Below, piece by piece: positions 1,661-51,874 of a DNA stretch of 64,000 nucleotides. Made by a program: the position numbers and the translations under genes. The notes below the pieces were generated by a model. It saw only the letters and a program-made list of their open reading frames with translations. It did not search any database and was not told where the DNA came from. This stretch comes from an uncultured Flammeovirgaceae bacterium (GTDB lineage Bacteria; Bacteroidota; Bacteroidia; Cytophagales; Cyclobacteriaceae). The stretch lies in contig CALBPF010000339.1 in assembly GCA_937899105.1 (NCBI GenBank), positions 1,267 through 65,266 on the forward strand, in the 5' to 3' direction. Every line of letters starts with the position of its first letter. Positions within the stretch are counted from its first letter, which is position 1.

Positions 1661-2458
1661 CTATTTTGATAGTAAATGATCAGTGGTCTTGGTCGTTTTA
1701 ATGCTTTGAATCGCATCAGAATTAGTGAAGTATTTGTTTAATAGATATGATAGTCGATTAGGCTTTATCTGTTGTGCTGCGTCGCTTAAGGCATTCTTTG
1801 GATCCTCATGTACCTCGATCATCATGCCACTATAGTTCTCTAATGGTGAAAAATACAGAAGAGGATCTATCTGATAACTGTTACCGGTGATATGACTTGG
1901 GTCGAGCAATACGGGTACTTCAGGAAAGTGAGCTTTTAGATCCTCGACTAATGGCCAGAGGGGTTCGTTTCTGTAGTGCGGGCTATTATGGACGGAGAAG
2001 CCCCGATGTACCGCGACGGGCTGAGTAATTCCATTATTCATGACCCGTTCTATGGCGCCTAACCAGAGTTTTCGGTCAGGGTTAATTGGGTTTTTGACCA
2101 TCAGAGTCACGTCTGTACCTTTAAGCGCTTTGGAAATTTCATTTACATAAAATGGATTCACTGTGGTTCTGGCGCCCAGCCATAATATCTTAATGTTATG
2201 CTTTAAGCACTGTTCTACATGATGTGGTAAAATCACTTCAGTGGCTACGGGTATCTGGTGAATCTCCTGTACGGAACTCAACCATGGTAACCCTTTTTCA
2301 CCTACACCTTCAAAATTACCTGGGAGGCTACGGGGTTTCCAAAGCCCGGCTCTCATTGCTGAAACACCGGGAATTCTCGACAGAATCTTTGCCAAATAGT
2401 CAATCTGTTCTTTGCTTTCGGGGCTACAGGGCCCAGCAATCACCATTGGGGTTTTCAT
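1661..2458 (-). CDS. 3-deoxy-7-phosphoheptulonate (DAHP) synthase, class I-beta (KDO8PS-like) type
   Basis: 265 aa. Motifs MVIAGPCSPES, WKPRSLPGNFEGVGEKGL, LWLGARTT, MVKNP, VLLDPSH, MIEVHEDPKNALSDAAQQ are the conserved blocks of class I-beta DAHP synthases. Divergent from the + strand cluster. Confidence 0.8.
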   Translation of the reverse strand: MKTPMVIAGPCSPESKEQIDYLAKILSRIPGVSAMRAGLWKPRSLPGNFEGVGEKGLPWLSSVQEIHQIPVATEVILPHHVEQCLKHNIKILWLGARTTVNPFYVNEISKALKGTDVTLMVKNPINPDRKLWLGAIERVMNNGITQPVAVHRGFSVHNSPHYRNEPLWPLVEDLKAHFPEVPVLLDPSHITGNSYQIDPLLYFSPLENYSGMMIEVHEDPKNALSDAAQQIKPNRLSYLLNKYFTNSDAIQSIKTTKTTDHLLSK

Positions 2459-2713: not shown

Positions 2714-3020
2714 GGTATCCTTGTAATCTCCAGCTTTAGGAATAATCTTCAGTAATAGATCCGTGAATAGATTGGAACAAGTATGTTAAAAAAATAGAGT
2801 TGATATTGACGTTTAAATTTAATCACCTGTTTATCTAGGGTTAAAAAAATGGTTCAATGTTAACTGTTTATTAAATCGTATAAATAAACTTACATCGTCA
2901 TATCATCCTTTTGGAATTTTAGAAAATTGTTCTAATTTCAAAATTCCATTGGCTAGAAATACCACAAAATAAAAGCAATGTAACTTGCTTCAGCGTAAGC
3001 TGTGCTCAATCGGTAGACTT

Positions 3021-3548
3021 ATGTTATACTCTTCGGATAAATGGTATGTACTGCTTACCATGCCCAAAGCGGAAAAAAAAGTGAGAGACTATCTGGAACG
3101 TAAAAACCTGGAGGTATTTTTACCTTTATATAAGAGGGTAGTTCAGTGGAGCGATAGGAAAAAAAAGCTGTTTGCTCCACTTTTTCCGGGGTACATATTT
3201 GTGCGGTTAGATAATAAAAGTTTTCACAAGGTCTATGACACGCCTGGAGTTTTGAAATTTGTTACGATACAAGGAGTAAAAGACACTGTGCCCGATGACG
3301 AAATTGATACCATCAAGTTATTGATACAGGGTAAGCCTGAAATATGTGAAAGACATTTTGAACCCGGACAGGTCGTAGAGGTATTTTCAGGACCATTTCT
3401 TGGATTAAAGGGTGAGCTTATCAAATATAAAGGCAAAGACAGGGTATTGGTACACTTGAACACTGTAAATAAAAGTGCGATGTTGGAGATCCTACCTAAC
3501 CAACTTAGGAAATGTCCTGGTAAAAAGGTAAGTAAGGTAACTGCCTAG
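3021..3548 (+). CDS. NusG-paralog transcription antiterminator (UpxY / LoaP-like, NGN + KOW)
   Basis: WYVLLTMPKAEKKVRDYLERKNLEVFLPLYKRVVQWSDRKKKLFAPLFPGYIFVRLD is an NGN domain. GQVVEVFSGPFLGLKGELIKYKGKDRVLVHL is a KOW motif. The ORF-track start (TTG 2985) is probably too early; the ATG at 3021 immediately precedes the NGN domain. Confidence 0.8.
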   Translation: MLYSSDKWYVLLTMPKAEKKVRDYLERKNLEVFLPLYKRVVQWSDRKKKLFAPLFPGYIFVRLDNKSFHKVYDTPGVLKFVTIQGVKDTVPDDEIDTIKLLIQGKPEICERHFEPGQVVEVFSGPFLGLKGELIKYKGKDRVLVHLNTVNKSAMLEILPNQLRKCPGKKVSKVTA

Positions 3549-3685: not shown

Positions 3686-3964
3686 ATGAAAAAGAAAGAA
3701 ATAGTAAAAGGACTGAAAGAAATCCTTGTGGACAAATTGGATGTCAATTTAAAAATGGAGAGCATCAAAACTGATGTGCCATTATATGAGGGTGGAATAG
3801 GATTGGATTCGATTTCAATTGTTAATCTGATCGGTCTCACAGAAGAGCGGTTTAATTTCCGCTTTGAAGATGACGAGATCAGTACAGAAATATTTGGCAG
3901 CCTGGATGCACTATCTTCTTTTATTGAAAAAAAACATGCTGCCGCCCAAGTATTTAACCTTTAG
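3686..3964 (+). CDS. Stand-alone acyl/peptidyl carrier protein
   Basis: 92 aa. GGIGLDSISIVNLIGLTEERFNF has the phosphopantetheine attachment Ser in an LDS context, and the size fits a four-helix carrier protein. Confidence 0.75.
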   Translation: MKKKEIVKGLKEILVDKLDVNLKMESIKTDVPLYEGGIGLDSISIVNLIGLTEERFNFRFEDDEISTEIFGSLDALSSFIEKKHAAAQVFNL

Positions 3965-4108
3965 CATTACCTGTCTACAGCGCAAAATACGTTCAAAGCG
4001 CTCATAAATATTAGGGGATGATCATTGCCACTCAATACTATTTGACTTAATCGATGTCTAATTCTTTGCTAGATATTTGACTAATCTTAAAACATCAATT
4101 TCTAAAAA

Positions 4109-5440
4109 ATGGAAGAAACGCTACAAAACCTAATAGTCGGGCAGTCCGAAGCAAAAGGATCGACTTTCGGTACTGCACCTACCAGAAACGAATTTTATAC
4201 CAACTATCCTTATTTTAAGTACTGGAAAAGTGATTTTAATACTCACTTGACTGATCCAGAAGGACTTATCATTTATATTCATATCCCGTTTTGTGTGCAA
4301 ATTTGTGACTACTGTTTCTATATGAGAGAGGTACTCAAATCGCCTAAGCAAATGAGTGAGTACATTGATACATTATGCGAAGAAATTAAACTAGTAAGTA
4401 ACCGCTTTAATCTTCTACATCGTAAGGTAGATGCTATTTACATTGGAGGTGGAACCCCATCTCTTTTGAAGGAAAAGCAGTTTTTCAGAATAGTGGATAC
4501 ACTACATAAGTATCATCAGATAAAAGATCCTGAATTTACTGTAGAGGCTGAGCCCGGAACTTTCAGTTTTAAAAAGATAGAGTGGTACAAGCAAGGAGGC
4601 GTCACTCGCATAAGTATGGGGGTACAATCTTTTGATGACGAAATCATTCGGTTGAGTCACCGAAAACATACAGGTGAAATGGCATTGAAAGCTGTTAATA
4701 TGGTGAAAGATGTGGGATTCTATTCCAATATTGATTTGTTAAGCGGGTTAGCAGGCGAAAGTATGGATACCTGGAGAAAATCTGTAGATACCGCCATCCA
4801 AAGCGGTGTTTCGATGCTAACCATATACCGGATGATCAATTATTCAAATACTACGTTCTTTGATAAATCTGTGCGTAAAGATCAATTGGCTTTACCTTCA
4901 GATCAACAGGAAGTGGAATTTATGACACATGCTGTCCAAAAAGTTCAGAATTCTGGGTATGACAGTTGGAGTTCATATATGTTTGTGAAAGACAATTACA
5001 AACACACCTACACTGAAAAATCATCCAGAGGACATGATCACATTGCTTACGGCGCCTCTTCATTTGGGAAGTTTGGAAATGTGGTTTACCAGAATTCGAA
5101 CATCGTAAAGCTATACAAGGAGAAAGTAGCAAATGGTGAGGTGCCGATCTCGAGAAGTTATGCTTTGTCTGCTAAGGATGAAATGATCAGAGAAATATTG
5201 CTTTGTACTAAATTATTCTCCTACACCAGTGATGAATTCGAGGTGAAATATGGGTTTAATTATATCGATCTGATCAAAGACGCCGTCGTAAAACTTGAAC
5301 GTGAAGACTATATTGCCATAGGAGAAAGAGGTATTGAGCTAACACAAAAGGGAACAGTATTTGGCGATTATGTAGGTATGGCGCTGGCCTCAAGCCTTAA
5401 AAATACATTGGCATTGGATAATATTAGCTTTACTTACTAG
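4109..5440 (+). CDS. HemN-like (class C) radical SAM enzyme
   Basis: 443 aa. IYIHIPFCVQICDYCFY is the CxxxCxxC cluster motif in the HemN context. IYIGGGTPSLL is the HemN-family GGGTP box. RISMGVQSFDD is present, and a C-terminal HemN_C-like region follows. Confidence 0.85.
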   Translation: MEETLQNLIVGQSEAKGSTFGTAPTRNEFYTNYPYFKYWKSDFNTHLTDPEGLIIYIHIPFCVQICDYCFYMREVLKSPKQMSEYIDTLCEEIKLVSNRFNLLHRKVDAIYIGGGTPSLLKEKQFFRIVDTLHKYHQIKDPEFTVEAEPGTFSFKKIEWYKQGGVTRISMGVQSFDDEIIRLSHRKHTGEMALKAVNMVKDVGFYSNIDLLSGLAGESMDTWRKSVDTAIQSGVSMLTIYRMINYSNTTFFDKSVRKDQLALPSDQQEVEFMTHAVQKVQNSGYDSWSSYMFVKDNYKHTYTEKSSRGHDHIAYGASSFGKFGNVVYQNSNIVKLYKEKVANGEVPISRSYALSAKDEMIREILLCTKLFSYTSDEFEVKYGFNYIDLIKDAVVKLEREDYIAIGERGIELTQKGTVFGDYVGMALASSLKNTLALDNISFTY

Positions 5441-5561
5441 TCATAAACTTATCGGATAATAAATCTGCACTATTACTATTGAGCTATAATACGCTGATAT
5501 TATTGTGTTTATTAACCAAGTACAGTGCGTCCGCCTAGATGAATTTTTAAATGAATATATT

Positions 5562-5981
5562 ATGAAAACTCTAGAACATCTGATCTTTAATTTAGATCAA
5601 AGTCCTTTGTCAACTGTGCCTTTCCACTCTGATGTCGAGGGCATTGACCGGTATTTTTCAGATACGTTCCCCCTGCACATGGCTATACATAATGTCGATC
5701 GTAAAGATGAAGTGCAAATGCAGTATACCAAACTTCACAAGCATGATGTAGCCGAAATAAATGTTATCATCGGAACCGATCAATTACAATATAGGATTGG
5801 TCTTGAAGATAAAGAATTCGTCGTCGGCGCCAATACGGGTATATGGATACCGGCCGGGGTGCGGCACTCGGCTAATTTGGTCAAAGGAAAGGGTTACTTT
5901 ATCGCCATTCGGTTAGATGCCATACCCGAAAAATTGACCAAAGAAAAGGCTGAAATTTTAACAGCTTCAAATGCCGAGTGA
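5562..5981 (+). CDS. Small cupin-fold metalloprotein (function unknown)
   Basis: HKHDVAE fits HxH-x3-E and GIWIPAGVRHSAN fits the P-x-G-x2-H motif, matching the two cupin motifs. The ATG at 5562 is preferred over the GTG at 5505 listed in the ORF track. Confidence 0.5.
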   Translation: MKTLEHLIFNLDQSPLSTVPFHSDVEGIDRYFSDTFPLHMAIHNVDRKDEVQMQYTKLHKHDVAEINVIIGTDQLQYRIGLEDKEFVVGANTGIWIPAGVRHSANLVKGKGYFIAIRLDAIPEKLTKEKAEILTASNAE

Positions 5982-6009
5982 TCTAACACCCAGGTAGGCC
6001 GTTTTTTAT

Positions 6010-7428
6010 ATGCACAGCTCTTTCAATACTGAACTGATCAAACAGCGCCTCTTGAATAGCGAAAGCTTGATCTGCGATGAGCAACATACTTTATTTTACA
6101 GTGATTGTGAACCCTTATTTACCAAAAGTACGCGAGATACTTCACTTGATATATTACTTCTCGACAACAGATTACCCATGGTATTGCAACTCATCCATTA
6201 TTTGTTAGATCAAAGAAGTTTTCTAGCGCTTAATGGCACATCTGAAGGCGCTCATTTAAAGGAAAATTTCACCACCTTTTGTAATAAAATAATATCATTC
6301 GATGGAAAAATAAAATGGAGCAATATTAACAGTGGCATTAAGATTTTTGATAATCCATTTTTTCGGTCTCGGAAAGCAATATTTCATGAGGATAAATCAT
6401 ATCTCGTTCTCAAAACTTCCGGCTCTACGAACCGGCCAAAGTTTGTATTACATGATCAAAGCCATGTATTGAGAAACGCGCTAGGTTCGGCCAGCAAGCT
6501 AACTTTATCACCCGAGGACAGAGTGTTGATCCCCGTTCCGGTATACCATTCATATGGACTAACGACCGCATTGATCCCTTCCATCATAGCAGGATGTTCT
6601 GTGAAACTTGTTAGTAACACCAACATAATACGTCTGATAGAGGCAATTAAGTCGTTCAAGCCGACCGTCATGTTTGCCACACCGAGCCTTATCGAAATGT
6701 TGTTGAAAATGAGGACAAAGATTACCATTCCCAAGGTTACCACTACCGCTGGAGACAGGCTAAGGGAAGATCTATTTTTGGAATATGAGCAACGGATTGG
6801 TACTCTTTTGAATCTCTATGGGTCTACAGAAATGGGGGCGATGGCCGTTTCTGATGTGAGTCAACCATTGATTGACAGAGCAAAAAGCGGAGTGAGCGCG
6901 CTGCCGGGTGTAGAATTAAAGGTGCAAAATACTAAAGATCAATCAGGAGCTATATATTGTAAAAACGAAAATCGATTTATTGAATACCTGGATTATGACG
7001 GTGTGAGCATTCATTCTCCCGATAATATCCATAATTGGTTCGATACTAAGGATTATGGTCAATTAAACGGAACCGAGATAAAGGTATTAGGAAGGTCTGA
7101 TCATAAGATCAATCGTAATGGTATTTTATTGTCGTATTTCGAAATTGAGAATGCCATTGCATTAGCCTGTAAGGAATTAAAAAAGGTGGTAGTTGTAAAA
7201 CAACAGTCGGCACAAGATATTATGGGCGCCCAGTTTGCTATTATATGCCAACCAAAAAAGGACGATACTATAATCGATCATGAATTAATAAGACGAAAAT
7301 GTGTAGAAAACTTAAGTAAAAGTATGATTCCCGATGCCATTCAGTTGGTGGATGAAATGCCTCAATTGGCCAATGGTAAGATAGATCGAAGATCCTTACA
7401 AAAAAAGTTTGATCATCTTATTGGATAA
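6010..7428 (+). CDS. Stand-alone ANL-superfamily adenylating enzyme (acyl/aminoacyl-carrier protein or CoA ligase)
   Basis: 472 aa. LKTSGSTNRPKF (A3-like), LYGSTEMG (A5), FDTKDYG (A7), GRSDHKINRNG (A8), ANGKIDRRSL (A10). No carrier or C domain is fused. Confidence 0.8.
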   Translation: MHSSFNTELIKQRLLNSESLICDEQHTLFYSDCEPLFTKSTRDTSLDILLLDNRLPMVLQLIHYLLDQRSFLALNGTSEGAHLKENFTTFCNKIISFDGKIKWSNINSGIKIFDNPFFRSRKAIFHEDKSYLVLKTSGSTNRPKFVLHDQSHVLRNALGSASKLTLSPEDRVLIPVPVYHSYGLTTALIPSIIAGCSVKLVSNTNIIRLIEAIKSFKPTVMFATPSLIEMLLKMRTKITIPKVTTTAGDRLREDLFLEYEQRIGTLLNLYGSTEMGAMAVSDVSQPLIDRAKSGVSALPGVELKVQNTKDQSGAIYCKNENRFIEYLDYDGVSIHSPDNIHNWFDTKDYGQLNGTEIKVLGRSDHKINRNGILLSYFEIENAIALACKELKKVVVVKQQSAQDIMGAQFAIICQPKKDDTIIDHELIRRKCVENLSKSMIPDAIQLVDEMPQLANGKIDRRSLQKKFDHLIG

Positions 7429-7520: not shown

Positions 7521-10500
7521 ATGACTCTGAATAAGATACTTAATGAAAGAGCGTCATTGATAGAAGAAGGAGTTACCTTTATTGAGCAAGGTCGTAAAGA
7601 CTCGTTTCTTTCCTACGCTCAGCTGTACCATAAATCATTAAAGGCTCTAGGGTATTTACAAGAACAAAAGATAATGCCTGGTGACGAGTTGATTTTTCAA
7701 ATTGAAGATAACAAGACTTTTGTCATCATTTTTTGGGCATGCCTATTGGGGGGAATAATACCTGTCCCATTAAGTATCGGCCGTAACGATGAACAACGGA
7801 ATAAGGTTTTTAAGGTATGGAATGTACTGAATAATCCATATTTGGTGATGAACCGAAATCAAAGAACTAAATTTAAAAGAAACATTAACTCCATTAGTAA
7901 ACACTCCCGTTCACGTAAAAATATACTTAAAAAAACATTCTTGACTGATGATATACTTAATGAAAAGAATGAGGGCATCGAGCAAGAAGTGGACTCGGAT
8001 CAAATTGCATTTATACAATTTTCGTCCGGGTCAACAGGCGACCCAAAGGGAGTCGTACTTACACATAAAAACCTATCAACTAATGTCGCTGCAATCAGTC
8101 ACGCCGCGGAATACAGCAAAAATGATTCCCTGATCAGTTGGATGCCGTTAACGCATGACATGGGTTTGATCGGATTTCATATTAACCCCTTATTAAATGG
8201 AATAAACCAATACATAATCAGCACAGATCTATTTATACGGAGGCCATCTGTGTGGTTGGATAAAGCTAGTGAATATAGTGCGACGGTGTTATCTTCTCCT
8301 AATTTCGGCTATAAATATTTAATGAAACATTGCAATGTAGCTGCTCAAAATGAGTGGGACCTTTCTGCTGTAAGAATAGTTTACAATGGGGCAGAGCCCA
8401 TATCATTAGCCATATGCGAGGACTTTTTAGAGGTTATGGCCAGTCAGGGGCTAAAAAGAAATGCCATGTGCCCGGTTTATGGACTAGCAGAGGCAAGTTT
8501 AGCGGTATCCATTTCGGGCATAGAAGATAACATAATTTCCTGTTTACTTGATAGAAACAAACTCAACTTTGGTGATCGAATATCAGAAGTGAATGACAGG
8601 TCAGGCGCGGTTAACTTTGTTAATGTGGGAAAGCCGATCAATGACTGTCTAGTGCGCATTACGAATAATAGAAATGAACCAGTTGCCGATCAAACGATTG
8701 GACACATCCAGATAAAAGGAGATAATGTTACTTCTGGTTATTACAACAATAAAGAAGCTACCAAAGCCGTAGTACAAACAACTGGATGGGTAAAAACCGG
8801 TGATCTGGGTTTTATAAAAGAAGGGGCGCTATACATTACAGGTAGAGAAAAAGACATCATTTTTATCCATGGACAAAACTACTACCCTCATGATATAGAA
8901 AGAGTGGCAGAACAAGTAGAAGGTGTAGAGTTAAACAAGGTGGTGGTTGCAAGCCATCTCGATCATGATACGGGAAAGGAAGAGGTTCTTGTATTTGTTT
9001 ATCATAAACAAGGTATTGAGAAATTCATTCCTATAGTTCATACTTTGAAGAATGTGATCAACAAAGAGATCGGCATAGAAATAGATAAAGTATTGCCGGT
9101 GAGGGACATTCCCAAAACCACCAGCGGCAAGCTTCAAAGGTATAAGTTGGTTGAGCGTTATAAGGACGGCTACTACGATAATGTAGAGTTACAATTAGAG
9201 AGAGTAGATGTCCAGGAGGTCACATCAACAAATACTGTTGAACCGCCTGCCAACGAAACCGAGAAAAGATTGCTGAGGATCTGGCAAAGAGTTTTGAAAG
9301 ATGAGGGCCTGGGCGTTACAAGTCCATTTCTTAGTGTAGGCGGAAATTCGTTAAGAGCTGCGGAAATTGAAATGTGGGTATTAAAAGAATTTCAATTAGA
9401 CCTGCCAGCTAGTCTGATATATGAAAAAGGTACAGTTAGGGCGGTTGCCAATGAGATCACAACGCTTGATGCACAAAGATATAACCCGATCCCCAAAGTA
9501 ACTTCCCAGGGTCAATACCCATTAACCTCGGCTCAAAAACCACTTTATTATGGATGGGAAGCAAATAAGAATTCAATAGCTTACAACATACCTATAGCGC
9601 TATTGGTTGATCGTAAAATAAATGAAGAAAAACTTGAAAGTTGTATCAAAAAAATAATTGCCAGGCATGATGTACTTCGCATGTCATTTAACACTCAGGC
9701 AGAACCTTACTCCCTATTGCACGAAGGAATCGATTTTACCCTGGAATATTCTAAAATTGAAACTAACGAACTTGATAAGGAACTTAAGAAACGTGTAAGA
9801 CCATTTGACCTAAGAAAATTGCCCTTATTCCGGGTTGAGTTAGTCGAAATAGGTCAAGATCGACATATACTGCTCTTAAATTTTCATCATATCATTTCAG
9901 ATGGTATTTCTGTCTACCATTTTATTGAGGAACTCTTTCAGCTTTATGATGGAGGTGTTATTCCTTCACTACCAGCAAGTTATAGAGACTACAGCCACTG
10001 GGAAAGGAAGATTCTGAACTCAGAAACTATAAAATTGCAGCAGGAATATTGGTTAGAGCAACTAGGAGGTGAACTACCTATATTAGATTTACCAACAGAC
10101 TTTTCCCGTCCCGCCATCTTTAGTAGTAGCGGAGAAAAAATACAACTTTGTTTTAATAATACTACTAATAACAAGTTGAGAGTACTTGCTAGTAGGTACC
10201 ACTGTTCCTTGTCAGAACTGATGTTCACGATATACGGATTATTGATTTATACTTACACAAGACAAGAAGATATCATTATAGGCGTGCCCGTTGCGGGAAG
10301 GAAACATCCTGATATATTGAGCTCACAAGGAATGTTTGTGAATAATTTGCCCGTTAGGATACACATTGATAAAAGCCCATCCTTTCTCGACGTACTTGAT
10401 AATCTAAAGACAAGTTTCCATTTGGCGCTTGCCAATCAGCTATATCCATTCGAGTACCTCGTCGACCAAGTTACTGAACGGAGAGACCCAAGCAGAAATC

Positions 10501-13500
10501 CATTATTTGATACAATGTTTGTCTATCAAAACATGGGATTTTCCGACATTAAAACCAACGACTTTAACGCTTCTTGGTATTCATTTGATCCTGGATTCTC
10601 AAAATTTGACCTTTCCATAGAGATTATTGACAATGGAAGCACACTTCACTATGGCTTCGAATATGCTACTGACTTATTTAAAAAAGAAACCATCTTTGGT
10701 CTAATAGATCATTTTGACCGTTTGATTGGCGCAATTCTTAACGATCCAACATGTCAACTGTCTGACTTGTTGGAGCTTACTGCCGCAGAATATGAAAATC
10801 AAATAAGAAAGTATAATGCTTCCCATGCACCATATCCAAAGAATAAGACCATTCATGAATTGTTTAAGGAGCAGGCATGTAAATACAATACTAGCACAGC
10901 TATCTTATTTAATGGCGAGGCCATCACGTATGATCAACTGGATAAAAGCGTTGATAGATTAGCCTTTTCGCTGAGGGAGCAGGGTGTTGAAATAGGCGCT
11001 ATTGTAGGTGTTTTATTTGATCGGTCTCTAGCATTTATAGTAAGTATCCTAGCGGTTATGAAGGCCGGTGGCGCTTATTTACCTATAGATACGGATCTGC
11101 CCATGGGCCGTGTAGAGTATATTTTCAATAATAGTAAATGTGGCTTTGCACTCACATCCGATAGTAACAGTAAGTTGCTGTCCGATCTCATCAATTCCAA
11201 AAACCTCGATCAACACTTAATAACCATTAACGTTGATGAACATGATTTCTTATCCGAACATCAGGCTGAAATAGAAAACATTAATGTAGCTACCGATCTG
11301 GCTTATACAATATATACATCAGGAACAACCGGAGGCCCTAAGGGTGTAATGATAGAGCACAGATCGTTGGTCAATTATATCCATTGGGCGGCAAAAACGT
11401 ATGTAGATGGCCAGGATTCACATTTTCCATTGTTTACTTCCGTTTCATTCGATCTTACTATCACATCGATCTTCACCCCATTATTAACAGGGAATAGAAT
11501 TGTTATTTACGATTCAGATGATATTGCCATCAAGAAGGTGATGGAGGATAATCAGGTTAATGTTATCAAACTGACACCATCACATCTTAAAATCATTAAT
11601 GAGACCCTGACAAATAGCTTCGCATCCAAAAGTAAAGTGAAAAAGTTCATTGTTGGTGGCGAAGCGCTGGATACCTCATTGGCAAGGAAGATTTACGATA
11701 AATTTAATGGGGATATAGAAATTTATAACGAATACGGACCAACAGAGGCTACGGTAGGTTGTATGACCTATTTATTCGATCCTAAAGAAGACTCATTGAC
11801 TGTGCCTATCGGCTTTCCTATCTCTAATGCACAAGTGTATCTTTTGGATGAATCATTTAAGCCGGTCTCCATAGGTATTTACGGTGAGATCTTTGTTTCA
11901 GGAGATGGGGTAGCAAAAGGATATATTTTTAATGAAGAATTAACTTCACAAAAATTTATTCCTGATCCTTTCAGGGAAGGACAAATGATGTATCGGACGG
12001 GTGATGTTGCCAGGCGTCTTTCTTCGGGAGTACTGGAATTTATTCGTCGTAAAGACGAGCAAGTCAAAATTAACGGGTACCGGGTAGAGCTTTCAGAGGT
12101 AGCACATTACCTCAGGAAGTTTGATGGCATAACTGATGCTTTGATAACGGTGCAAAAAGGAGAGCTAAATAATGTAGCGCTGTATGCATACTTTACAACC
12201 AACGAGGAAAAGGAACGGTCTGTAAATGAGTCATCATTGAGAAACTACCTGGCCCAACTACTGCCTTACTATATGGTCCCTGCGCATTTTGCCAGACTTG
12301 AAGAAATTCCGCTTACCCGAAACGGAAAAGTCAACTATGCAAGCCTGCCCTTGGCTAATAATGATGGGAAGTTCAAAAAGCCTGAAAATGATATTGAAAC
12401 TCTTTCAATTGAAGCCTGGGAAAAGGTATTAGGAAATCAATCTTTATCTACTACTCATAACTTCTTTGAGTTAGGTGGGGATTCTATCAAAGCAGTACAG
12501 ATATCTTCGCGGTTAAGAGAAAAAGGAGTTATCATTGAAGTCAGAGATATTCTTACCTATCAATCTATAGACGCTATAAGTCCATATGCCAAAAGGATAG
12601 GTCAAACACGAACCTATGAGCAGGGTGTAATCCAGGGAGAATTTGGCTTGTTTCCAATCGCATCCTGGTTTTTTCATCAAAACTTTAAGAACCCTGATTT
12701 CTATAATCAGTCTGTTTTACTCGATATCAACGATCAACTTAATACACAGCATCTCGAACAAGCCTTTACCTATCTAATTGAATGGCATGATGAACTACGG
12801 ATAAATTATAATCTTGATAAGAACATTTTATTTTACAACACAAAGCACCTTAACAAAAGTTTTGAACTTAATAGCTTTAGTTTATCAGATGCGTCCGAGT
12901 TACCTTTTATCTGTCATAAACTCCGTGATTCCTTTGATATTAAAACAGGCTTATTAATAAAAGCTGCTATTATAAAGGTAAAAGATGATCAGGACGTCAG
13001 ACTGTTTATCGCAGCACATCACCTGGTGATCGATGGCCTGAGCTGGCGTATACTGCTTTCAGACCTTTACCGCATTTATAAAGATATAGAGGCAGGTGTT
13101 TCAATACATATGGCGCAAAAAACGGCTACTTTGATAGAATGGTTTGATGCTTTACAATCTTATCAGTATGCCACCTCGGAGGAAAAATATTGGAAAGATG
13201 TTCAATCGTTAAAATTCAGTATCCCCCAGGATTTTGAGACCCATGATTGGAAAGTAGAAAACCTGGGAAGACTCGGCAGGTCTTTAGAGCAAGAGCAAAC
13301 TGAACTTTTGATTAAGGGAAAACACAACACTTATGGGACCGATGCACTTGTATTGTTAAACGCTGCCCTGGCCATGACACTAGCAGAATGGACAGGTGAA
13401 AAGGTGTTGGTAGTGGAACATGAAAATCATGGAAGACATTTGGAAGGCATTGACGCCTCTCGTACGTTAGGTTGGTTCACAGCATTATATCCTGTTCTAC

Positions 13501-13982
13501 TGAAAATAGAAGAGGAGACTATACCCTCTATTATTAAGTCCGTTAAAGAACAACTAAAACGTGTACCTGGTCAGGGTATTGGATATGGTGTTAGGGCTTT
13601 TATGCATGGGGCTCCCATCAGAACTGACGACTTAAGTTCTGAATTAAGGTTCAATTATCTTGGTCAACTGGATGAGGTAGTGAATAACGATCTATTCAAC
13701 TATAATTCACAATGGTCGGGTATAGAAACCAGTAGGTCGAATCATTTTAGTACAAAATTAGAATGCAATGGTATAGTTGTAAATGGAATATTTTCCCTGG
13801 AAATACTTTATAACCGCAAGGCTCATAAAGACTCTACTATCCAATGGCTAACTGAAAAGTTCTTCAGTTACTTATCGATAATTCTTGATCATATAAAAAA
13901 CGAAGACGACTTACACTTAACTCCTTCCGACTTTGAAACCGCCAATTTGGATCAGCAAGAATTGGATGCATTGTTTGATTAA
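7521..13982 (+). CDS. NRPS-1, lipoinitiation plus module 1: FAAL-T-C-A(Asn-type)-T-E
   Basis: 2153 aa. FAAL: SSGSTGDPKG 8022-8051, WMPLTHDMGLIGF. T: GGNS, Ser codon 9348-9350. C: HHIISDG 9885-9905. A: TSGTTGGPKG 11316-11345, NEYGPTE, NGKVNYASLP; hand-extracted code DLTKIGEVGK. T: GGDSIKAVQ, Ser 12483-12485. E: HHLVIDGLSW 13017-13046. Confidence 0.95.
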   Translation: MTLNKILNERASLIEEGVTFIEQGRKDSFLSYAQLYHKSLKALGYLQEQKIMPGDELIFQIEDNKTFVIIFWACLLGGIIPVPLSIGRNDEQRNKVFKVWNVLNNPYLVMNRNQRTKFKRNINSISKHSRSRKNILKKTFLTDDILNEKNEGIEQEVDSDQIAFIQFSSGSTGDPKGVVLTHKNLSTNVAAISHAAEYSKNDSLISWMPLTHDMGLIGFHINPLLNGINQYIISTDLFIRRPSVWLDKASEYSATVLSSPNFGYKYLMKHCNVAAQNEWDLSAVRIVYNGAEPISLAICEDFLEVMASQGLKRNAMCPVYGLAEASLAVSISGIEDNIISCLLDRNKLNFGDRISEVNDRSGAVNFVNVGKPINDCLVRITNNRNEPVADQTIGHIQIKGDNVTSGYYNNKEATKAVVQTTGWVKTGDLGFIKEGALYITGREKDIIFIHGQNYYPHDIERVAEQVEGVELNKVVVASHLDHDTGKEEVLVFVYHKQGIEKFIPIVHTLKNVINKEIGIEIDKVLPVRDIPKTTSGKLQRYKLVERYKDGYYDNVELQLERVDVQEVTSTNTVEPPANETEKRLLRIWQRVLKDEGLGVTSPFLSVGGNSLRAAEIEMWVLKEFQLDLPASLIYEKGTVRAVANEITTLDAQRYNPIPKVTSQGQYPLTSAQKPLYYGWEANKNSIAYNIPIALLVDRKINEEKLESCIKKIIARHDVLRMSFNTQAEPYSLLHEGIDFTLEYSKIETNELDKELKKRVRPFDLRKLPLFRVELVEIGQDRHILLLNFHHIISDGISVYHFIEELFQLYDGGVIPSLPASYRDYSHWERKILNSETIKLQQEYWLEQLGGELPILDLPTDFSRPAIFSSSGEKIQLCFNNTTNNKLRVLASRYHCSLSELMFTIYGLLIYTYTRQEDIIIGVPVAGRKHPDILSSQGMFVNNLPVRIHIDKSPSFLDVLDNLKTSFHLALANQLYPFEYLVDQVTERRDPSRNPLFDTMFVYQNMGFSDIKTNDFNASWYSFDPGFSKFDLSIEIIDNGSTLHYGFEYATDLFKKETIFGLIDHFDRLIGAILNDPTCQLSDLLELTAAEYENQIRKYNASHAPYPKNKTIHELFKEQACKYNTSTAILFNGEAITYDQLDKSVDRLAFSLREQGVEIGAIVGVLFDRSLAFIVSILAVMKAGGAYLPIDTDLPMGRVEYIFNNSKCGFALTSDSNSKLLSDLINSKNLDQHLITINVDEHDFLSEHQAEIENINVATDLAYTIYTSGTTGGPKGVMIEHRSLVNYIHWAAKTYVDGQDSHFPLFTSVSFDLTITSIFTPLLTGNRIVIYDSDDIAIKKVMEDNQVNVIKLTPSHLKIINETLTNSFASKSKVKKFIVGGEALDTSLARKIYDKFNGDIEIYNEYGPTEATVGCMTYLFDPKEDSLTVPIGFPISNAQVYLLDESFKPVSIGIYGEIFVSGDGVAKGYIFNEELTSQKFIPDPFREGQMMYRTGDVARRLSSGVLEFIRRKDEQVKINGYRVELSEVAHYLRKFDGITDALITVQKGELNNVALYAYFTTNEEKERSVNESSLRNYLAQLLPYYMVPAHFARLEEIPLTRNGKVNYASLPLANNDGKFKKPENDIETLSIEAWEKVLGNQSLSTTHNFFELGGDSIKAVQISSRLREKGVIIEVRDILTYQSIDAISPYAKRIGQTRTYEQGVIQGEFGLFPIASWFFHQNFKNPDFYNQSVLLDINDQLNTQHLEQAFTYLIEWHDELRINYNLDKNILFYNTKHLNKSFELNSFSLSDASELPFICHKLRDSFDIKTGLLIKAAIIKVKDDQDVRLFIAAHHLVIDGLSWRILLSDLYRIYKDIEAGVSIHMAQKTATLIEWFDALQSYQYATSEEKYWKDVQSLKFSIPQDFETHDWKVENLGRLGRSLEQEQTELLIKGKHNTYGTDALVLLNAALAMTLAEWTGEKVLVVEHENHGRHLEGIDASRTLGWFTALYPVLLKIEEETIPSIIKSVKEQLKRVPGQGIGYGVRAFMHGAPIRTDDLSSELRFNYLGQLDEVVNNDLFNYNSQWSGIETSRSNHFSTKLECNGIVVNGIFSLEILYNRKAHKDSTIQWLTEKFFSYLSIILDHIKNEDDLHLTPSDFETANLDQQELDALFD

Positions 13983-14014: not shown

Positions 14015-14995
14015 ATGGTAATACCCAGTATCCTTGAGCACGTCGGCAATACTCCATTGGTTTCTGTGAATATGGATGAATTCAAGCACATAAATCTATT
14101 TGTAAAGGTTGAAAGCTATAACCCAACCGGAAGTGTTAAGGACAGGGCCGCTTCATACATACTAGATAAACTCCTTAAGAATGGAACGATAAATTCGGAA
14201 ACCACTATTATAGAATCTACTTCCGGTAATTTTGGAGTAGCTTTATCTGCCTTTTGCAAACATTACAATTTAAGTTTCATTGCAGTAGTAGATTCGCATA
14301 TAACCACAATAAACGAAATGCTGATAAGGTCAAATGGAGCAAAAATCATTAAGGTTACAGAACCTGATAAATATGGAGGATATCTTCTCAACAGGATAAA
14401 AAAAGTCGAAGAACTTCAAAGTAAAATAAACAATTCGTATTGGGTGAATCAGTATGAGAATCCATTAAATGCTAAGGCCTATTATCAATCCCTGGGGAAA
14501 GAGTTATGCTTTCAAATAGAAGAAATGGACTATGTTTTTTTAGGTATAAGCTCAGGGGGAACAATTACAGGGGTTTCTAAGAAGATAAAAGAAAATTTTC
14601 CCCGGGCCAAAGTCATAGCTGTAGATGTAGAAGGTTCTCAAATATTTAAAAATTCTCCGATGAAAAGATACATTCCGGGAATAGGATCGAGTCTTAAGCC
14701 AAAAATAATTGAAGATGCTTTGATCGACGATGTGGTCATCACCGATGAAGTATCTACTATTCAGGCTTGTTATGAACTTCTACAAAAGTATAATTTCTTT
14801 GTTGGCGGTTCCTCCGGCTCCGTCTTTGCCGGAATAAAAAAATTCTTTGCCGATATGCCTAAGGAAAAAGTGAATATTGTTTCTGTTTTTCCTGATAGGG
14901 GAGAGCGTTATTTTGACACAATCTACAACAAGAAATGGGTAGAACGGGTGATTTCAATGAAGCAGGAATCGGCAGTTTCAGCCCTATATTCATAA
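14015..14995 (+). CDS. sbnA: PLP-dependent cysteine-synthase-fold enzyme, SbnA-type (2,3-diaminopropionate biosynthesis, step 1)
   Basis: 326 aa. GNTPLV, NPTGSVKDRAASYIL (PLP lysine), IIESTSGNFGVALS, GISSGGTITG. It sits directly upstream of an SbnB-like gene, which is the diagnostic pairing. Confidence 0.8.
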   Translation: MVIPSILEHVGNTPLVSVNMDEFKHINLFVKVESYNPTGSVKDRAASYILDKLLKNGTINSETTIIESTSGNFGVALSAFCKHYNLSFIAVVDSHITTINEMLIRSNGAKIIKVTEPDKYGGYLLNRIKKVEELQSKINNSYWVNQYENPLNAKAYYQSLGKELCFQIEEMDYVFLGISSGGTITGVSKKIKENFPRAKVIAVDVEGSQIFKNSPMKRYIPGIGSSLKPKIIEDALIDDVVITDEVSTIQACYELLQKYNFFVGGSSGSVFAGIKKFFADMPKEKVNIVSVFPDRGERYFDTIYNKKWVERVISMKQESAVSALYS

Positions 14996-15030
14996 ATTCA
15001 AAATATTAATCTAGAAGTTAACTGAATTCT

Positions 15031-15990
15031 ATGCTGATCCAAGATGATGATAGTATAAGGAGAATTGGTATAAACTGGAATAAGACGGTTCAAGTAATAG
15101 AGAAAACAGTTTTATGCCTTCATTCAAATATTTATGCTCAACCTATAAAACCATATTTAAGGTACGGTGATATGAAAAATCGAATTATCGCTATGCCTGC
15201 GTACGTTGGAGGAGCGGTCAATCTCGCTGGCATCAAATGGATCTCAAGCTTTCCTGATAATATTAAAAAAGGACTTCCCAGGGCACACAGTGTTATAATA
15301 TTAAATGATCCGGATACCGGCGCTCCTATAGGGGTTATTAATACCCCGTTAATTAGCGTTATTCGTACTGCGTCAGTTAGTGGATTAATGATCAAGCATT
15401 TTTGCCGCTCAAGAGAACTGCAAGATGTACACATTGGTATAACAGGTTTTGGACCCATAGGTCAGTATCACTTGCAAATGTGTAAACACCTGTTTGGAGA
15501 TCGTATAGAATCCGTCTCTATCTATGATAAAAGAGCAATAGACCCGCTTTTAATTGGTGATGATCCCAAAATAGGCATCGTAGATAGCTGGGAAAAAGCT
15601 TATACCAACTCCGATATCTTCATCACATGTACCGTTTCAGACACTCCTTATATTGATAAGAAGCCCAAGGAGAGATCTCTTCATCTAAACGTTTCACTTA
15701 GAGATTATAAATCACTTGTTTATCAATGGTTTAAAGATTCTATTATTGTAGATAATTGGGAGGAAGTATGCAGAGAAAAAACGGATATTGAAATGATGCA
15801 CTTGAAAATGAAATTAAAAAAGGAGCAGACAAAATCAATCGTTGATGTTGTTGTAAATGATGTTATAAACGATTTTGAGACTGATGCCCCAATAATGTTC
15901 AATCCTATGGGAATGGCCGTGTTTGATATTGCTATAGGAGGGTTATACTTTCAAGCCGAAAAGAAAGAGATTTTGCACGAAATGGTTTAA
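15031..15990 (+). CDS. sbnB: Ornithine cyclodeaminase/mu-crystallin family NAD enzyme, SbnB-type (2,3-diaminopropionate biosynthesis, step 2)
   Basis: 319 aa. RIIAMPAYVGGAVNLAGIKWISSFPDNIKKGLPRAHSVIILNDPDTGAPI, ISVIRTASVSG, and a Rossmann GITGFGPIGQ motif. Adjacent to the SbnA-like gene. Confidence 0.75.
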   Translation: MLIQDDDSIRRIGINWNKTVQVIEKTVLCLHSNIYAQPIKPYLRYGDMKNRIIAMPAYVGGAVNLAGIKWISSFPDNIKKGLPRAHSVIILNDPDTGAPIGVINTPLISVIRTASVSGLMIKHFCRSRELQDVHIGITGFGPIGQYHLQMCKHLFGDRIESVSIYDKRAIDPLLIGDDPKIGIVDSWEKAYTNSDIFITCTVSDTPYIDKKPKERSLHLNVSLRDYKSLVYQWFKDSIIVDNWEEVCREKTDIEMMHLKMKLKKEQTKSIVDVVVNDVINDFETDAPIMFNPMGMAVFDIAIGGLYFQAEKKEILHEMV

Positions 15991-16067: not shown

Positions 16068-18461
16068 ATGTCTTTTGTACAAAGTATAGCCTTTAATCAT
16101 ATGACACGTCACAACCTTACCTTTATCTATCGTAGCTTTAAGAAAAACAAGAGTTGGTTTTTTATCAATTGGTTGGGCCTTTCTACCGGATTGGTTTGCG
16201 CCTTACTAATTTATTTATGGGTGAAAAGTGAGTTAGGGGTTGATAAATTCCATGAGAATGATGCCAGGTTGTTTCAGGTAATGAAAACAAATGAATATTC
16301 TAATGGTGTTAAAACTTTTGAAATGACCCCCGGTCCTTTAGCCGAAGCGCTGACTGCTGAAATTCCTGAGATTGAATATGCCGTAAATATTTATTCGCTT
16401 CAAAACGGTACAATTATGTTGGAGGATAATTCTGAAATACGAGCCAAAGAGATATTTGCCGGTAAGGATCTATTTAATGTTTTTTCCTTCAACCTGATTG
16501 AAGGGAATGAAGACCAACTGCTGGAAAAAAATGATGCCGTCGTCATTTCTGAAGAGCTTTCACTGAAAATATTTAATACGACAGAAAATGTTGTTGGCAG
16601 AACCATCGATTGGAATCAGGCGGATTTTAGCGGTACTTATCTTATCACGGGTGTATTTGAAAGTACTCCGGAGAATTCGACGCTCCAATTTGATGTAGTA
16701 TATTCTTACGATCTTTTCGCAACAAAGAAACCTGATCAATACAGTTGGGGATACAATGATCCTTTTACCTATGTAGTGTTAAATTCTTCATCCACCTTGG
16801 ATGGAATAGACCAGAAGATGACCCGATTAATAAGGGAAAAAAGTGAAGATGAATCATCAACGCTATTCCTGCATTTATTTTCTGACAAATACCTGAAAGG
16901 AACTTTTGTTAACGGTGTCCAATCTGGTGGCAGAATAACCTATGTTAAACTTTTTTCCATCATTGCCATTGCCATATTGTCCATTGCGTGGATCAACTTC
17001 ATGAATCTATCTACCGCCCAGGCATCTAAGCGACTCAAAGAAGTCGGTATAAAAAAAGCCTTAGGCATAAGGCGCGGAGCACTCGTTTTTCAATTTCTGG
17101 GAGAGTCCACTGTACTGACCATTTTATCGTTGTTTACCGCATTATTATTTGTATTTCTGTTCCTTCCCCAATTCAATTTAATTGTTGGAAAACAACTTAT
17201 CCTACAACTTAATGCCGACCTTGTGCTTTACACTTTAGTTCTCCTTCTTCTAACAGGGCTGATTTCAGGGAGTTACCCGGCATTCTATTTGTCAGGGTTT
17301 AATGCCGTAACCCTGCTTAAAGGTAAGATAGTGACCAAAACAGGTGAGTTGTGGACAAGAAAAGCTCTGGTAGTGTTTCAGTTCTTGGTGTCTGTTCTGC
17401 TTATTGTTTCTGTTATAGTTATCTACTACCAAATCGAATTTATACAAAATAAAAATCTAGGATATAGCAGGGATAATGTTATCTACTTCAAAAAAGAGGG
17501 TAGAATAGCTCAAAAGCTTGAGACCTTTCTGCTAGCAATGGAAAATATTCCGGGAGTAGTAAATGCCACAAGTTTTGCCCATAATCTAACTGGTGACCAT
17601 GGTAAAACTTCTGGCTTGGTGTGGGAAGGCCGTTCGCCTGAAGAGCAAATTGCCTTTAGTTTTATTAACGCCAACTATAACTTCATTGAATTATTAGATA
17701 TTAACGTGAAGAAAGGAAGATCTTTCTCCAGGGATTTTAGTACTGATGATGCAAAGATTATTTTTAATGAGATGGCCATTGAAACGATGGGGCTGGAGGA
17801 TCCAATTGGCAAAATAGTTAATCTATGGGGTCAGGACAGGGAAATAGTCGGCATTGTTGAAAACTTTCATTTCGAATCGCTTTATGAAGAGATTAAACCC
17901 TGCTTTTTCAAAATATCTGATTACGGTGATCATATAATGATCAGAATGGAAGCAGGTACAACACGGCAGACTATTAGCAAGATTCAGAAATTCTTTGAAG
18001 AATATAATAATGGGCTACCATTCGATTTTAAGTTTATAGATGAAGATTATCAGGCTTTGTACGAATCGGAAAACAGAGTTGCTGTCTTGTCCAAGTACTT
18101 TGCTGTGATAGCCATTGTAATATCATGTCTTGGTTTATTTGCATTGGCTGCTTTTACCTCTCAAAAAAGGCTTAAAGAAATAGGAATCAGAAAAACGCTA
18201 GGTGCAAGCGAAATGAGCATTGTGTACCTTCTTTCAAGTAGTTTTACACGGACAGTATCTATTTCACTTATCATTGCACTACCATTAAGTTATTTTGCCT
18301 TGAGAGAGTGGCTTGACCAATTTATATATCGGGTAGACCTGGAGTTATGGTATTTCATATTGGCAGGTTTTATGGCGTTGCTTATCACCTGGTTAACTGT
18401 TGGCATGCAGACCATAAAAGCATCTAAAGTCAATCCTTTGAGTATTTTGAAAGAGGATTAA
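16068..18461 (+). CDS. MacB-like ABC transporter permease with two FtsX domains (Bacteroidota ~800-aa type)
   Basis: 797 aa. N-terminal TM helix (FINWLGLSTGLVCALLIYLW), a large extracytoplasmic domain, a 4-TM block, a second extracytoplasmic domain and a second FtsX block (KRLKEIGIRKTLGAS..). An alternative start is the ATG at 16101. No ATPase gene lies nearby. Confidence 0.8.
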   Translation: MSFVQSIAFNHMTRHNLTFIYRSFKKNKSWFFINWLGLSTGLVCALLIYLWVKSELGVDKFHENDARLFQVMKTNEYSNGVKTFEMTPGPLAEALTAEIPEIEYAVNIYSLQNGTIMLEDNSEIRAKEIFAGKDLFNVFSFNLIEGNEDQLLEKNDAVVISEELSLKIFNTTENVVGRTIDWNQADFSGTYLITGVFESTPENSTLQFDVVYSYDLFATKKPDQYSWGYNDPFTYVVLNSSSTLDGIDQKMTRLIREKSEDESSTLFLHLFSDKYLKGTFVNGVQSGGRITYVKLFSIIAIAILSIAWINFMNLSTAQASKRLKEVGIKKALGIRRGALVFQFLGESTVLTILSLFTALLFVFLFLPQFNLIVGKQLILQLNADLVLYTLVLLLLTGLISGSYPAFYLSGFNAVTLLKGKIVTKTGELWTRKALVVFQFLVSVLLIVSVIVIYYQIEFIQNKNLGYSRDNVIYFKKEGRIAQKLETFLLAMENIPGVVNATSFAHNLTGDHGKTSGLVWEGRSPEEQIAFSFINANYNFIELLDINVKKGRSFSRDFSTDDAKIIFNEMAIETMGLEDPIGKIVNLWGQDREIVGIVENFHFESLYEEIKPCFFKISDYGDHIMIRMEAGTTRQTISKIQKFFEEYNNGLPFDFKFIDEDYQALYESENRVAVLSKYFAVIAIVISCLGLFALAAFTSQKRLKEIGIRKTLGASEMSIVYLLSSSFTRTVSISLIIALPLSYFALREWLDQFIYRVDLELWYFILAGFMALLITWLTVGMQTIKASKVNPLSILKED

Positions 18462-18656
18462 CCTTTGGACATGGCACATTCAATATTGCCGAAACTAATC
18501 GGTGGTAATTAGGAAATAGTAGTAATTTCAAGTCTATAGGAAATCTGTGTTTAATCAGAGCTGTAGACTTGAAACCTCTATAGTCATAATGTATGGTAGA
18601 GTCGACTGGCTCCACATTGTGATTGAAATTAGTCGTTTAACTTCAGACTTTTTTAC

Positions 18657-34078: not shown

Positions 34079-34245
34079 GAATTGAACAATACCTGACCGT
34101 ACTTAGGAAGGAAAAGAATATTGTTGTTGCTTCTGAAGGCGGAAACCTTCAGATAAAAGCGAACCCAAAAGCTTTAACCAAGGAAATAGTTAATGAAATC
34201 AAGTCAAGAAAAAAGGAGATACTTGACTTTTATAGGGATACTGAA
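34075..34245 (+). other. TubC_N-like N-terminal docking domain of NRPS-4
   Basis: MRIEQYLTVLRKEKNIVVASEGGNLQIKANPKALTKEIVNEIKSRKKEILDFY follows the pattern helix, strand-turn-strand (X-L-X-V/I..), then ..L....I...K.EI..F seen in beta-hairpin NRPS docking domains. Confidence 0.55.
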
Positions 34246-37071: not shown

Positions 37072-37083
37072 AATAAAAAGGAA

Positions 37084-50655: not shown

Positions 50656-50708
50656 CAGTGCATGGTATATTCATCTCATCTTTTAATGTTCTACAAAATT
50701 AAAATGTA

Positions 50709-51767: not shown

Positions 51768-51874
51768 AACGGAGCGGTTGTTAGGCCTTAAATACAAAAT
51801 TTAATCAACACAGTCTTTGTACTTTTTACAGCATGCAGAGACTCAATTTTCCTACTTAAAAATATAAGTACACC

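Follow-up and report, generated by a model that had tools for sequence, protein, structure and literature searches.

A conserved carrier protein, radical SAM enzyme, cupin, and ligase cassette ahead of a Bacteroidota nonribosomal peptide synthetase cluster: a candidate module for an aromatic starter or cap unit

In the known aryl-acid starter systems, including EntE/EntB/EntF, AsbC/AsbD (with AsbF), Rv2949c/FadD22, XanB2/XanA2/XanC, and Ab5/Ab6/Ab8 of ambigol biosynthesis (with the 3-deoxy-D-arabino-heptulosonate 7-phosphate (DAHP) synthase Ab7), a hydroxybenzoate is produced from an intermediate of the shikimate pathway, loaded onto a carrier protein by an adenylating enzyme of the ANL type, and taken up by an assembly enzyme. 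To our knowledge, none of these systems has a class C radical S-adenosylmethionine (SAM) enzyme working on the carrier-bound aryl group, nor does any use a cupin as the acid-forming enzyme. In clorobiocin biosynthesis (CloN4/CloN5/CloN6) and among the CouN homologues, a HemN-like radical SAM enzyme has been implicated, together with a free-standing adenylating enzyme and a carrier protein, in the C-methylation of a pyrrole-2-carboxyl unit linked to the carrier. Here we describe a four-gene cassette encoding a free-standing carrier protein, a HemN-like radical SAM enzyme, a small cupin, and a free-standing ANL enzyme, which lies directly upstream of nonribosomal peptide synthetase (NRPS) genes in 64,000 nucleotides of DNA from an uncultured Flammeovirgaceae bacterium (contig CALBPF010000339.1 of assembly GCA_937899105.1; hereafter the window), and which may constitute a module for an aromatic-acid starter or cap unit. 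The CloN system can be likened to this cassette by description, although its substrate is proline-derived and it has neither a cupin nor an NRPS assembly line.

By analogy, the closest characterized counterpart of the cassette is the NosI/NosJ/NosN system of nosiheptide, in which NosI loads 3-methyl-2-indolic acid onto NosJ, NosN modifies the NosJ-bound indole, and NosK carries out off-loading (PMC5585349). Common to the two are an ANL enzyme, a free-standing carrier protein, and a class C HemN-like radical SAM enzyme, with transfer of a one-carbon (C1) unit to a tethered ring being the chemistry of the nosiheptide system and that predicted for the cassette (PMC5585349; PMC10114718). Nosiheptide differs in being the product of a thiopeptide pathway, of the type whose peptides are made on the ribosome and modified after translation (RiPP), in another host, with another substrate and without a cupin, whereas the presumed acceptor in the window is an NRPS. 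Additionally, no NosK-like α/β-hydrolase was found among the scanned open reading frames (ORFs) of at least 150 amino acids in the window, and the relatedness of the window radical SAM enzyme to NosN-type proteins is modest, with the match to the class C methylase NocN (9p2u; E = 3.7e-23) spanning the radical SAM core only. An earlier note on the window, made from the sequence alone, knew of no characterized system with this exact gene set; this stands for the complete set of four, of which literature searches found no description, but not for the core of ANL enzyme, carrier protein, and class C radical SAM enzyme, for which NosI/NosJ/NosN provides a precedent. What would be new relative to all of these systems is the pairing of a benzoate-type unit with a class C radical SAM enzyme, the use of a cupin in place of a lyase, and delivery to an NRPS that already possesses a lipoinitiation module.

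The cassette and the genes on either side of it are as follows, with FAAL denoting a fatty acyl-AMP ligase and T, C, and A denoting thiolation, condensation, and adenylation domains.

3686..3964, forward strand: free-standing acyl/aryl carrier protein (ACP) of 92 amino acids; PF00550, 27.3 bits (cut-off 20.8)
4109..5440, forward strand: HemN-like (class C type) radical SAM enzyme of 443 amino acids; PF04055, 77.5 bits
5562..5981, forward strand: small metal-binding cupin of 139 amino acids; listed as an ORF from GTG 5505, with the start at ATG 5562 set by all homologues
6010..7428, forward strand: free-standing ANL adenylating enzyme of 472 amino acids; PF00501, 100 bits; presumed acid:ACP ligase
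2985..3548, forward strand: UpxY-family NusG-like antiterminator; NF033644 (UpxY), 139 bits (cut-off 100)
7521..13982, forward strand: NRPS-1, FAAL-T-C-A-T-C by Pfam and domain mapping; its lipoinitiation module lies directly downstream of the ANL gene

All four cassette ORFs are intact, adjacent, and co-oriented, and the cassette proposed in the earlier note at 3686-7428 thus exists as described, the sole correction being the start of the cupin. It belongs to a long co-oriented NRPS cluster (G+C of the window approximately 38%) with an antiterminator of the UpxY family, a family typical of Bacteroidota, at its head. No terminator-like sites were found between 2400 and 7700, where 2.9 would be expected in shuffled sequence, and the UpxY gene is the probable first gene of the cassette-bearing operon; NusG-like genes likewise stand at the head of two related loci, from Gaetbulibacter (L085) and Sphingobacterium faecium (L103). 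The closest relatives of the NRPS-1 N-terminus are fatty acyl-AMP ligases, and a T domain follows. NRPS-1 therefore does have the FAAL-T pair of its own that had been read from the sequence, and a role of the cassette separate from fatty-acid loading is supported by comparison with other loci.

Comparison with other genomes has revealed that the cassette is conserved. In the clade to which the window belongs, the order ACP, radical SAM enzyme, cupin, ANL enzyme is kept directly upstream of NRPS genes at each of the seven other distinct loci, with radical SAM proteins 74-80% identical to that of the window. Within this clade, one locus (L004) has a sulfotransferase inserted after the ACP as well as two α/β-hydrolases beside it, three (L088-L090) encode a separate FAAL-T protein before the ACP, several more (L091/L092 and L094-L096) keep the plain order, and one (L093) is a sister locus sharing 99% identity with the window. 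The identical four-gene order in L004, L088-L092, and L093-L096 is not a matter of chance, and the quartet proves to be conserved with NRPS genes in other genomes, as the gene-neighborhood comparison proposed in the earlier note was meant to establish.

Beyond this clade, distant members of the family, whose radical SAM proteins are 39-58% identical to that of the window, keep the ANL enzyme, the ACP, and the radical SAM enzyme together. Specifically, these are loci in Chitinophaga rhizophila (L001), Flagellimonas (L002/L003), Gaetbulibacter, and Sphingobacterium faecium, two in one Sphingobacteriales metagenome-assembled genome (L005 and L086), L087, L102, and two in Prochlorothrix-like cyanobacteria (L007/L008), such that the family as a whole spans Bacteroidota and Prochlorothrix-like cyanobacteria. 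The three genes lie within a few kb of one another in 13 of 13 family loci (radical SAM identity 39-80%), and the window ACP is 39-74% identical to the carrier proteins of 12 related loci in an identity matrix. Profiles of the family ACP, ANL enzyme, lyase (described below), and cupin matched none of 76 loci carrying other HemN-like genes (at most 32% identity); these control loci were taken from a radical SAM scan of a genome collection and are mostly housekeeping HemW loci, with only L005-L008 from that scan being members of the family. Strict linkage with the radical SAM gene (13/13 versus 0/76) supports the earlier suggestion that the ACP and the ANL enzyme form a trans-loading pair, and from this co-occurrence we infer that the radical SAM enzyme would act upon a carrier-bound substrate. 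Gene content, motifs, conservation, and co-occurrence are all direct observations.

Some family loci are of a simpler or different make-up. L087 consists of a minimal set of ANL enzyme, ACP, and radical SAM enzyme together with a single C-A-T-thioesterase NRPS, a layout resembling EntE/EntB/EntF, and no NRPS lies within reach in L008 or L102. In the cyanobacterial loci L007 and L008 the trio is accompanied by a clear chorismate lyase, two sulfotransferases, an Asp/Asn-hydroxylase-like protein, and a GT41-methyltransferase fusion; since these two loci have no NRPS in reach, the ANL-ACP-radical SAM module is tied neither to NRPSs nor to Bacteroidota. L005 and L086, on the same 7.7-Mb contig, are two paralogous ANL-ACP-radical SAM cassettes in different NRPS clusters, and a chorismate-lyase-like gene lies within 10 kb of only one of them.

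The nature of the acid is suggested by the genes that accompany the trio. In 8 of 10 distinct loci outside the window clade (L002 and L003 being the same place and counted once), the ANL gene is abutted by a gene homologous to PF01947, the family of Rv2949c-like chorismate pyruvate-lyases, and the start codon of the ANL gene is often overlapped by it. Like the Rv2949c system, then, the wider cassette family has a PF01947 lyase: it is present in L001, L002/L003, L007, L008, L085, L086, L102, and L103. While the PF01947 score is 59.9 bits in L008, it falls just under the cut-off of 22 in L001 (21.2) and L003 (18.1); a profile built from the lyase-like proteins finds all of them strongly and matches the DUF98 structure 2nwi at 6e-13. 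Frequent neighbors in family loci also include sulfotransferases, adenosine 5'-phosphosulfate (APS) kinase, EryCIII/UDPGT-type glycosyltransferases, and class I methyltransferases, and sulfotransferases, glycosyltransferases, and methyltransferases of such types typically decorate phenols. The lyase-like gene and these phenol-decorating neighbors argue for a hydroxybenzoate unit as opposed to a fatty or amino acid, and the common denominator of the family, consistent across phyla, would be a 4-hydroxybenzoate that is made, loaded onto the ACP, and modified by the radical SAM enzyme.

Within the window clade the position of the lyase is taken by the cupin. Across loci the two genes are mutually exclusive, and both occupy the slot directly 5' of the ANL gene; the cupin is the derived state, since the family members furthest removed, those of the cyanobacteria, are of the lyase type. 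The cupin carries HxHxxxE (HKHDVAE, residues 59-65, nucleotides 5736-5756) and PAGxxH (PAGVRH, residues 97-102, nucleotides 5850-5867) motifs, and the resulting 3-His/1-Glu site (H59, H61, E65, H102), which the earlier note had rightly called intact, is conserved without exception across 19 diverse homologues sharing 31-65% identity with the window protein. Additional invariant residues of the family are H22, R30, H39, and Y55, with H43 found in at least 90% of sequences. An AlphaFold model shows a cupin barrel (mean pLDDT 72, core 85-90) for which Foldseek returns many generic small cupins at probability 1.00 and a TM score of approximately 0.5. The protein scores below the cut-offs of the Pfam Cupin_2 and AraC_binding models, and a single-sequence search of the PDB produced no match.

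Investigation of the wider cupin family points in the same direction as the lyase. The family is rare, with 195 representatives among 1.84 billion proteins in an exhaustive profile search, and a metagenome scan with a nine-sequence alignment yielded nine loci; two distant loci (L098 and L101) have uninformative contexts. One member (P0232) is fused to an enzyme of the benzoate-CoA-ligase family (TIGR02262, 370.7 bits versus a cut-off of 375), two (P0197 and P0223) are fused to PF00891 phenolic O-methyltransferases whose nearest structures are CalO6, MmcR, and DnrK, and a further one carries a class I methyltransferase fusion. The cupin of Rapidithrix thailandica and Shouchella miscanthi stands between a cation-dependent O-methyltransferase of the catechol/caffeoyl-CoA type and a trans-acyltransferase (trans-AT) polyketide synthase (PKS)/NRPS.

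L104 (Rapidithrix thailandica), 9210-10435: catechol O-methyltransferase and cupin before a trans-AT PKS/NRPS
L105 (Shouchella miscanthi), 9308-10423: catechol O-methyltransferase and cupin before a trans-AT PKS/NRPS

The loading A domain of these two synthases reads FLPS or FMPS where amino-acid-activating domains have FDxS, and the absence of the amino-binding Asp indicates that it activates a non-amino acid. Rapidithrix produces ariakemicins, which have an isovanilloyl (3-hydroxy-4-methoxybenzoyl) starter (PMC4306955), and the L104 locus may be the ariakemicin cluster; literature searches found no published ariakemicin gene cluster, and for that reason the link to the cupin is only suggestive. 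Furthermore, on a Priestia megaterium plasmid (NZ_CP071469; L106 14157-21605), a cupin homologue annotated as a hypothetical protein (WP_207372405.1) is flanked by genes for an amidohydrolase and a 4-hydroxy-2-oxovalerate aldolase. The catechol-type meta-cleavage cluster in which it is embedded also encodes an extradiol dioxygenase, a tautomerase, a 2-oxo-3-hexenedioate decarboxylase, and a hydroxymuconic semialdehyde dehydrogenase. These associations point to aromatic chemistry and favor a role in the formation of a (di)hydroxybenzoate, possibly protocatechuate. The cupin family may be a more novel element than the radical SAM core. With its lyase-like counterpart and its aromatic associations, the cupin makes an aromatic hydroxy acid a more likely substrate than the modified acyl or aminoacyl unit previously proposed for the cassette.

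The radical SAM enzyme retains CxxxCxxC (CVQICDYC, residues 62-69, nucleotides 4292-4315) and GGGTP (residues 113-117, nucleotides 4445-4459) motifs, and it aligns with E. coli HemN (1olt) near full length, over residues 30-426 (E = 3.7e-34). Equivalents of HemN Tyr56 and His58 are present, the residues with which HemN holds its cluster and its two SAM molecules are retained, and fold, cofactor motifs, and a HemN-type N-terminal YTNYP segment are shared with HemN, HemW, and ChuW/HutW. Unlike those proteins, the enzyme falls below every equivalog cut-off (TIGR00538 HemN, 172.3 versus 324.95 bits; TIGR00539 HemW, 191.3 versus 205.4; TIGR04107 ChuW/HutW, 194 versus 400), has in place of the fourth cysteine of HemN CxxxCxxCxC a tyrosine that is invariant in its family, and occurs in a secondary-metabolism context. 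PF06969 is found in some relatives but not in the window protein, and identity to HemW of Pedobacter, Flavobacterium, and other Bacteroidota is 27-29%. These data agree with the earlier assignment to the HemN-like class C enzymes as opposed to heme housekeeping. At least 120 close cluster representatives exist, all at least 43% identical; many are named HemW or coproporphyrinogen oxidase by their sources. In the loci examined, genes of the family are always in a biosynthetic gene cluster and not a housekeeping context, and the proteins so named almost certainly belong to secondary metabolism; relabeling them would improve annotation and gene cluster prediction in Bacteroidota. We know of only a handful of class C radical SAM enzymes with established substrates.

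Class C enzymes attack an sp2 carbon with a methylene radical that originates from SAM, with a methyl group, a cyclopropane, or a NosN-type electrophile as the result (PMC10114718). In L001, L002/L003, and L086, a class I methyltransferase gene is often immediately beside the radical SAM gene, an arrangement that recalls the C10P/C10Q radical SAM enzyme and methyltransferase pair of CC-1065. L087 contains an unannotated ORF of 284 amino acids (11531-12385) with a GxGxG-like motif and no Pfam match.

Both proteins of the presumed loading pair retain their signature motifs. The phosphopantetheine serine of the ACP lies in GLDS (residues 39-42, nucleotides 3800-3811), and the AsbD model gives a weak match to this protein. 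The ANL enzyme has A3 (TSGSTNRPK, nucleotides 6415-6441), A5 (YGSTE, 6817-6831), and A8 (GRSDHKINRNG, 7090-7122) motifs and the A10 lysine in a C-terminal NGK (7372-7380), with Cfl and the oxalate-, succinylbenzoate-, and benzoate-CoA ligases as its best solved relatives. A substrate assignment from identity and motifs was attempted and is not decisive: the A4 region reads HSYGL in the window clade and HMYGL in the lyase-associated ligases, and the divergence between the two groups is no greater than that within the lyase-associated group.

Together these observations lead us to favor, with a probability of roughly 0.5, a mechanism in which the cassette would supply an aromatic-acid starter or cap unit through ANL/ACP loading, C1 transfer by the radical SAM enzyme, and uptake by the NRPS. 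From gene content and conservation we infer all of the chemistry, including which acid is used, what C1 transfer produces, and where the unit enters the assembly line. In this mechanism the cupin would provide or shape a (di)hydroxybenzoate, preferably by making the acid from a shikimate-pathway intermediate, the role assumed by the chorismate pyruvate-lyase-like enzyme in most related cassettes; this route is preferred because the cupin replaces the lyase, with ring hydroxylation being an alternative way for the cupin to yield the same type of acid. The free-standing ANL enzyme would then adenylate the acid and load it onto the phosphopantetheine arm of the free-standing ACP. Using two SAM molecules, the radical SAM enzyme would attach a methylene radical derived from SAM at a ring sp2 carbon of the tethered aryl thioester, ring C-methylation to a ring-methylated aryl-ACP being the simplest outcome. 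Lastly, an NRPS condensation domain would take the modified aryl group from the ACP, and the product would bear this group as well as the fatty acid that the FAAL-T of NRPS-1 loads.

Several findings weigh against this mechanism. No chorismate-lyase homologue is present anywhere in the window, such that the source of the aromatic acid depends upon the proposed function of the cupin, and neither lyase nor cupin lies within 10 kb of the cassettes in L005 and L087. Among solved structures, those nearest to the cupin by profile (E ~3e-4) and by fold are MarH-type epimerases, albeit as weak matches, and such epimerases act on beta-methyl keto acids and are not aromatic-acid synthases. The best NCBIfam and PDB matches of the ANL enzyme are mixed (succinylbenzoate, fatty-acid, oxalate, coronafacate, and benzoate ligases) and give no specific substrate call, and its identity to the lyase-associated ligases is only about 30-36%, although those ligases are equally divergent among themselves. 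When the aryl-associated C domains of other loci were compared with the 15 C domains of the window, no C domain accepting an aryl-ACP was identified; N5_C1 and N6_C1 matched best, but an identity of only 22-32% is not decisive. The protein N5 (34075-37071) was considered as a C-A protein that uses the free ACP and was ruled out, as its own T domain lies in the next frame (37084-37413). The same side of the balance holds two observations on a gene at the cluster edge, between a transposase fragment and the start of the operon.

1661..2458, reverse strand: divergent DAHP synthase; PF00793, 93.8 bits, with NCBIfam DAHP synthase models below cut-off

This gene could possibly offer an extra supply to the shikimate pathway, though the link is weak. 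It is absent from the other window-clade loci, and its counterpart in the sister locus L093 (4104-4902) is split by a 5-bp deletion (TTTAA), being either dispensable or the victim of an assembly error. For these reasons the DAHP synthase was downgraded as strong support for a shikimate-derived unit.

A more specific version of the favored mechanism, which we advance tentatively and consider less likely than not, is that the cupin is an unrecognized (di)hydroxybenzoate-forming enzyme standing in for chorismate lyase, followed by class C C1 transfer on the aryl-S-ACP. Such a cupin could be, for example, a cupin-fold 3-dehydroshikimate dehydratase or a chorismate-utilizing lyase leading to protocatechuate; literature searches found no paper on a cupin dehydroshikimate dehydratase. 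The radical SAM step would in this case give either simple ring methylation or a reactive, NosN-like exocyclic methylene through which the cap becomes cross-linked to the peptide. If so, the cassette would represent a new and widespread route to C-alkylated phenolic caps in the natural products of Bacteroidota and cyanobacteria.

Among the alternatives, the one that survives best keeps the logic of loading and radical SAM modification and makes the cupin a tailoring oxygenase, e.g., a ring hydroxylase converting ACP-bound or free 4-hydroxybenzoate to a catechol, with the acid supplied by general metabolism or by a gene beyond the window. Cupin oxygenases typically have an intact 3-His/1-Glu site, and the adjacency to catechol O-methyltransferases and the meta-cleavage cluster would fit any catechol-forming enzyme. 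The cupin, however, replaces the chorismate-lyase-like gene and is not added to it, no other source of 4-hydroxybenzoate is visible, a protein of 139 amino acids has no obvious electron-donor partner in the cassette, and its nearest solved relatives are non-redox; we therefore consider this alternative unlikely.

Less probable still is the version put forward in the earlier note, in which an aliphatic or aminoacyl unit (enoyl, keto, or amino acid) is methylated or cyclopropanated on the ACP, extended here by a cupin that acts as a MarH-like epimerase or isomerase and fixes the configuration adjacent to the methyl group introduced. Profile and fold both point to MarH and a related non-heme-iron epimerase/lyase as the cupin's best solved relatives, the HxH...E...H site is common to the cupin and the MarH/StnK3-type epimerases, and methyltransferases often adjoin or are fused to cupins of the family; moreover, enoyl thioesters bound to an ACP are cyclopropanated by Jaw5 (PMC10114718). 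The cupin nevertheless resembles MarH only weakly (E ~3e-4, identity 15-20%, TM score approximately 0.5), and the family cupins have other partners and extra invariant residues. The methyltransferases in question are phenolic and catechol O-methyltransferases, not C-methyltransferases of the MppJ or MarI type, and both the pairing of the wider radical SAM family with chorismate-lyase-like genes and the fusion of one cupin to a benzoate-CoA-ligase-family enzyme speak for an aromatic substrate. That the radical SAM protein is an ordinary heme enzyme, either the chaperone HemW or the coproporphyrinogen dehydrogenase HemN, with coincidental neighbors, is highly improbable, for despite the names given to many family members and a HemW score close to its cut-off, every equivalog cut-off is missed, identity to Bacteroidota HemW is low, and linkage to the ANL enzyme and ACP is strict.

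Should the favored mechanism hold, a radical SAM family acting on carrier-bound benzoates would widen the known chemistry of class C enzymes and provide a genome-mining handle for capped lipopeptides, some of them possibly iron-binding. The function of the cupin family, once solved, could in turn explain how (iso)vanilloyl-type starters are made.

The remainder of the window contains additional features of the NRPS cluster. A gene pair of the SbnA/SbnB type for L-2,3-diaminopropionate (Dap) lies at 14015-15990, with SbnA scoring 377.8 bits (above the cut-off of 349.95) and SbnB 295 bits (just under that of 326.9), and the peptide product probably contains Dap. The ORF for N5, of docking-C-A type, ends inside its A10 motif (PPNGM followed by a stop), with the T domain (GGNSL) in another frame; this apparent frameshift within 34075-37413 reflects either an assembly error or a broken gene. 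Upstream of it, at 26618-34078, an A domain is split over two ORFs by a stop at 32257 and a restart at 32279, the second ORF opening with a luciferase-like monooxygenase insertion (PF00296), after which come the remainder of the A domain and a T domain. Tailoring and export genes at 16068-20648, 37501-38448, and 49195-53731 encode a MacB-type permease, a NodU-like carbamoyltransferase, a TauD-family dioxygenase, a serine beta-lactamase/peptidase-like protein, an FkbM methyltransferase, and an asparagine-synthase-type amidotransferase. A fragment of a DDE-type transposase (9-323) at the window's left edge, of which the full gene is present in L093 (1654-2766), likely marks the border of the gene cluster.

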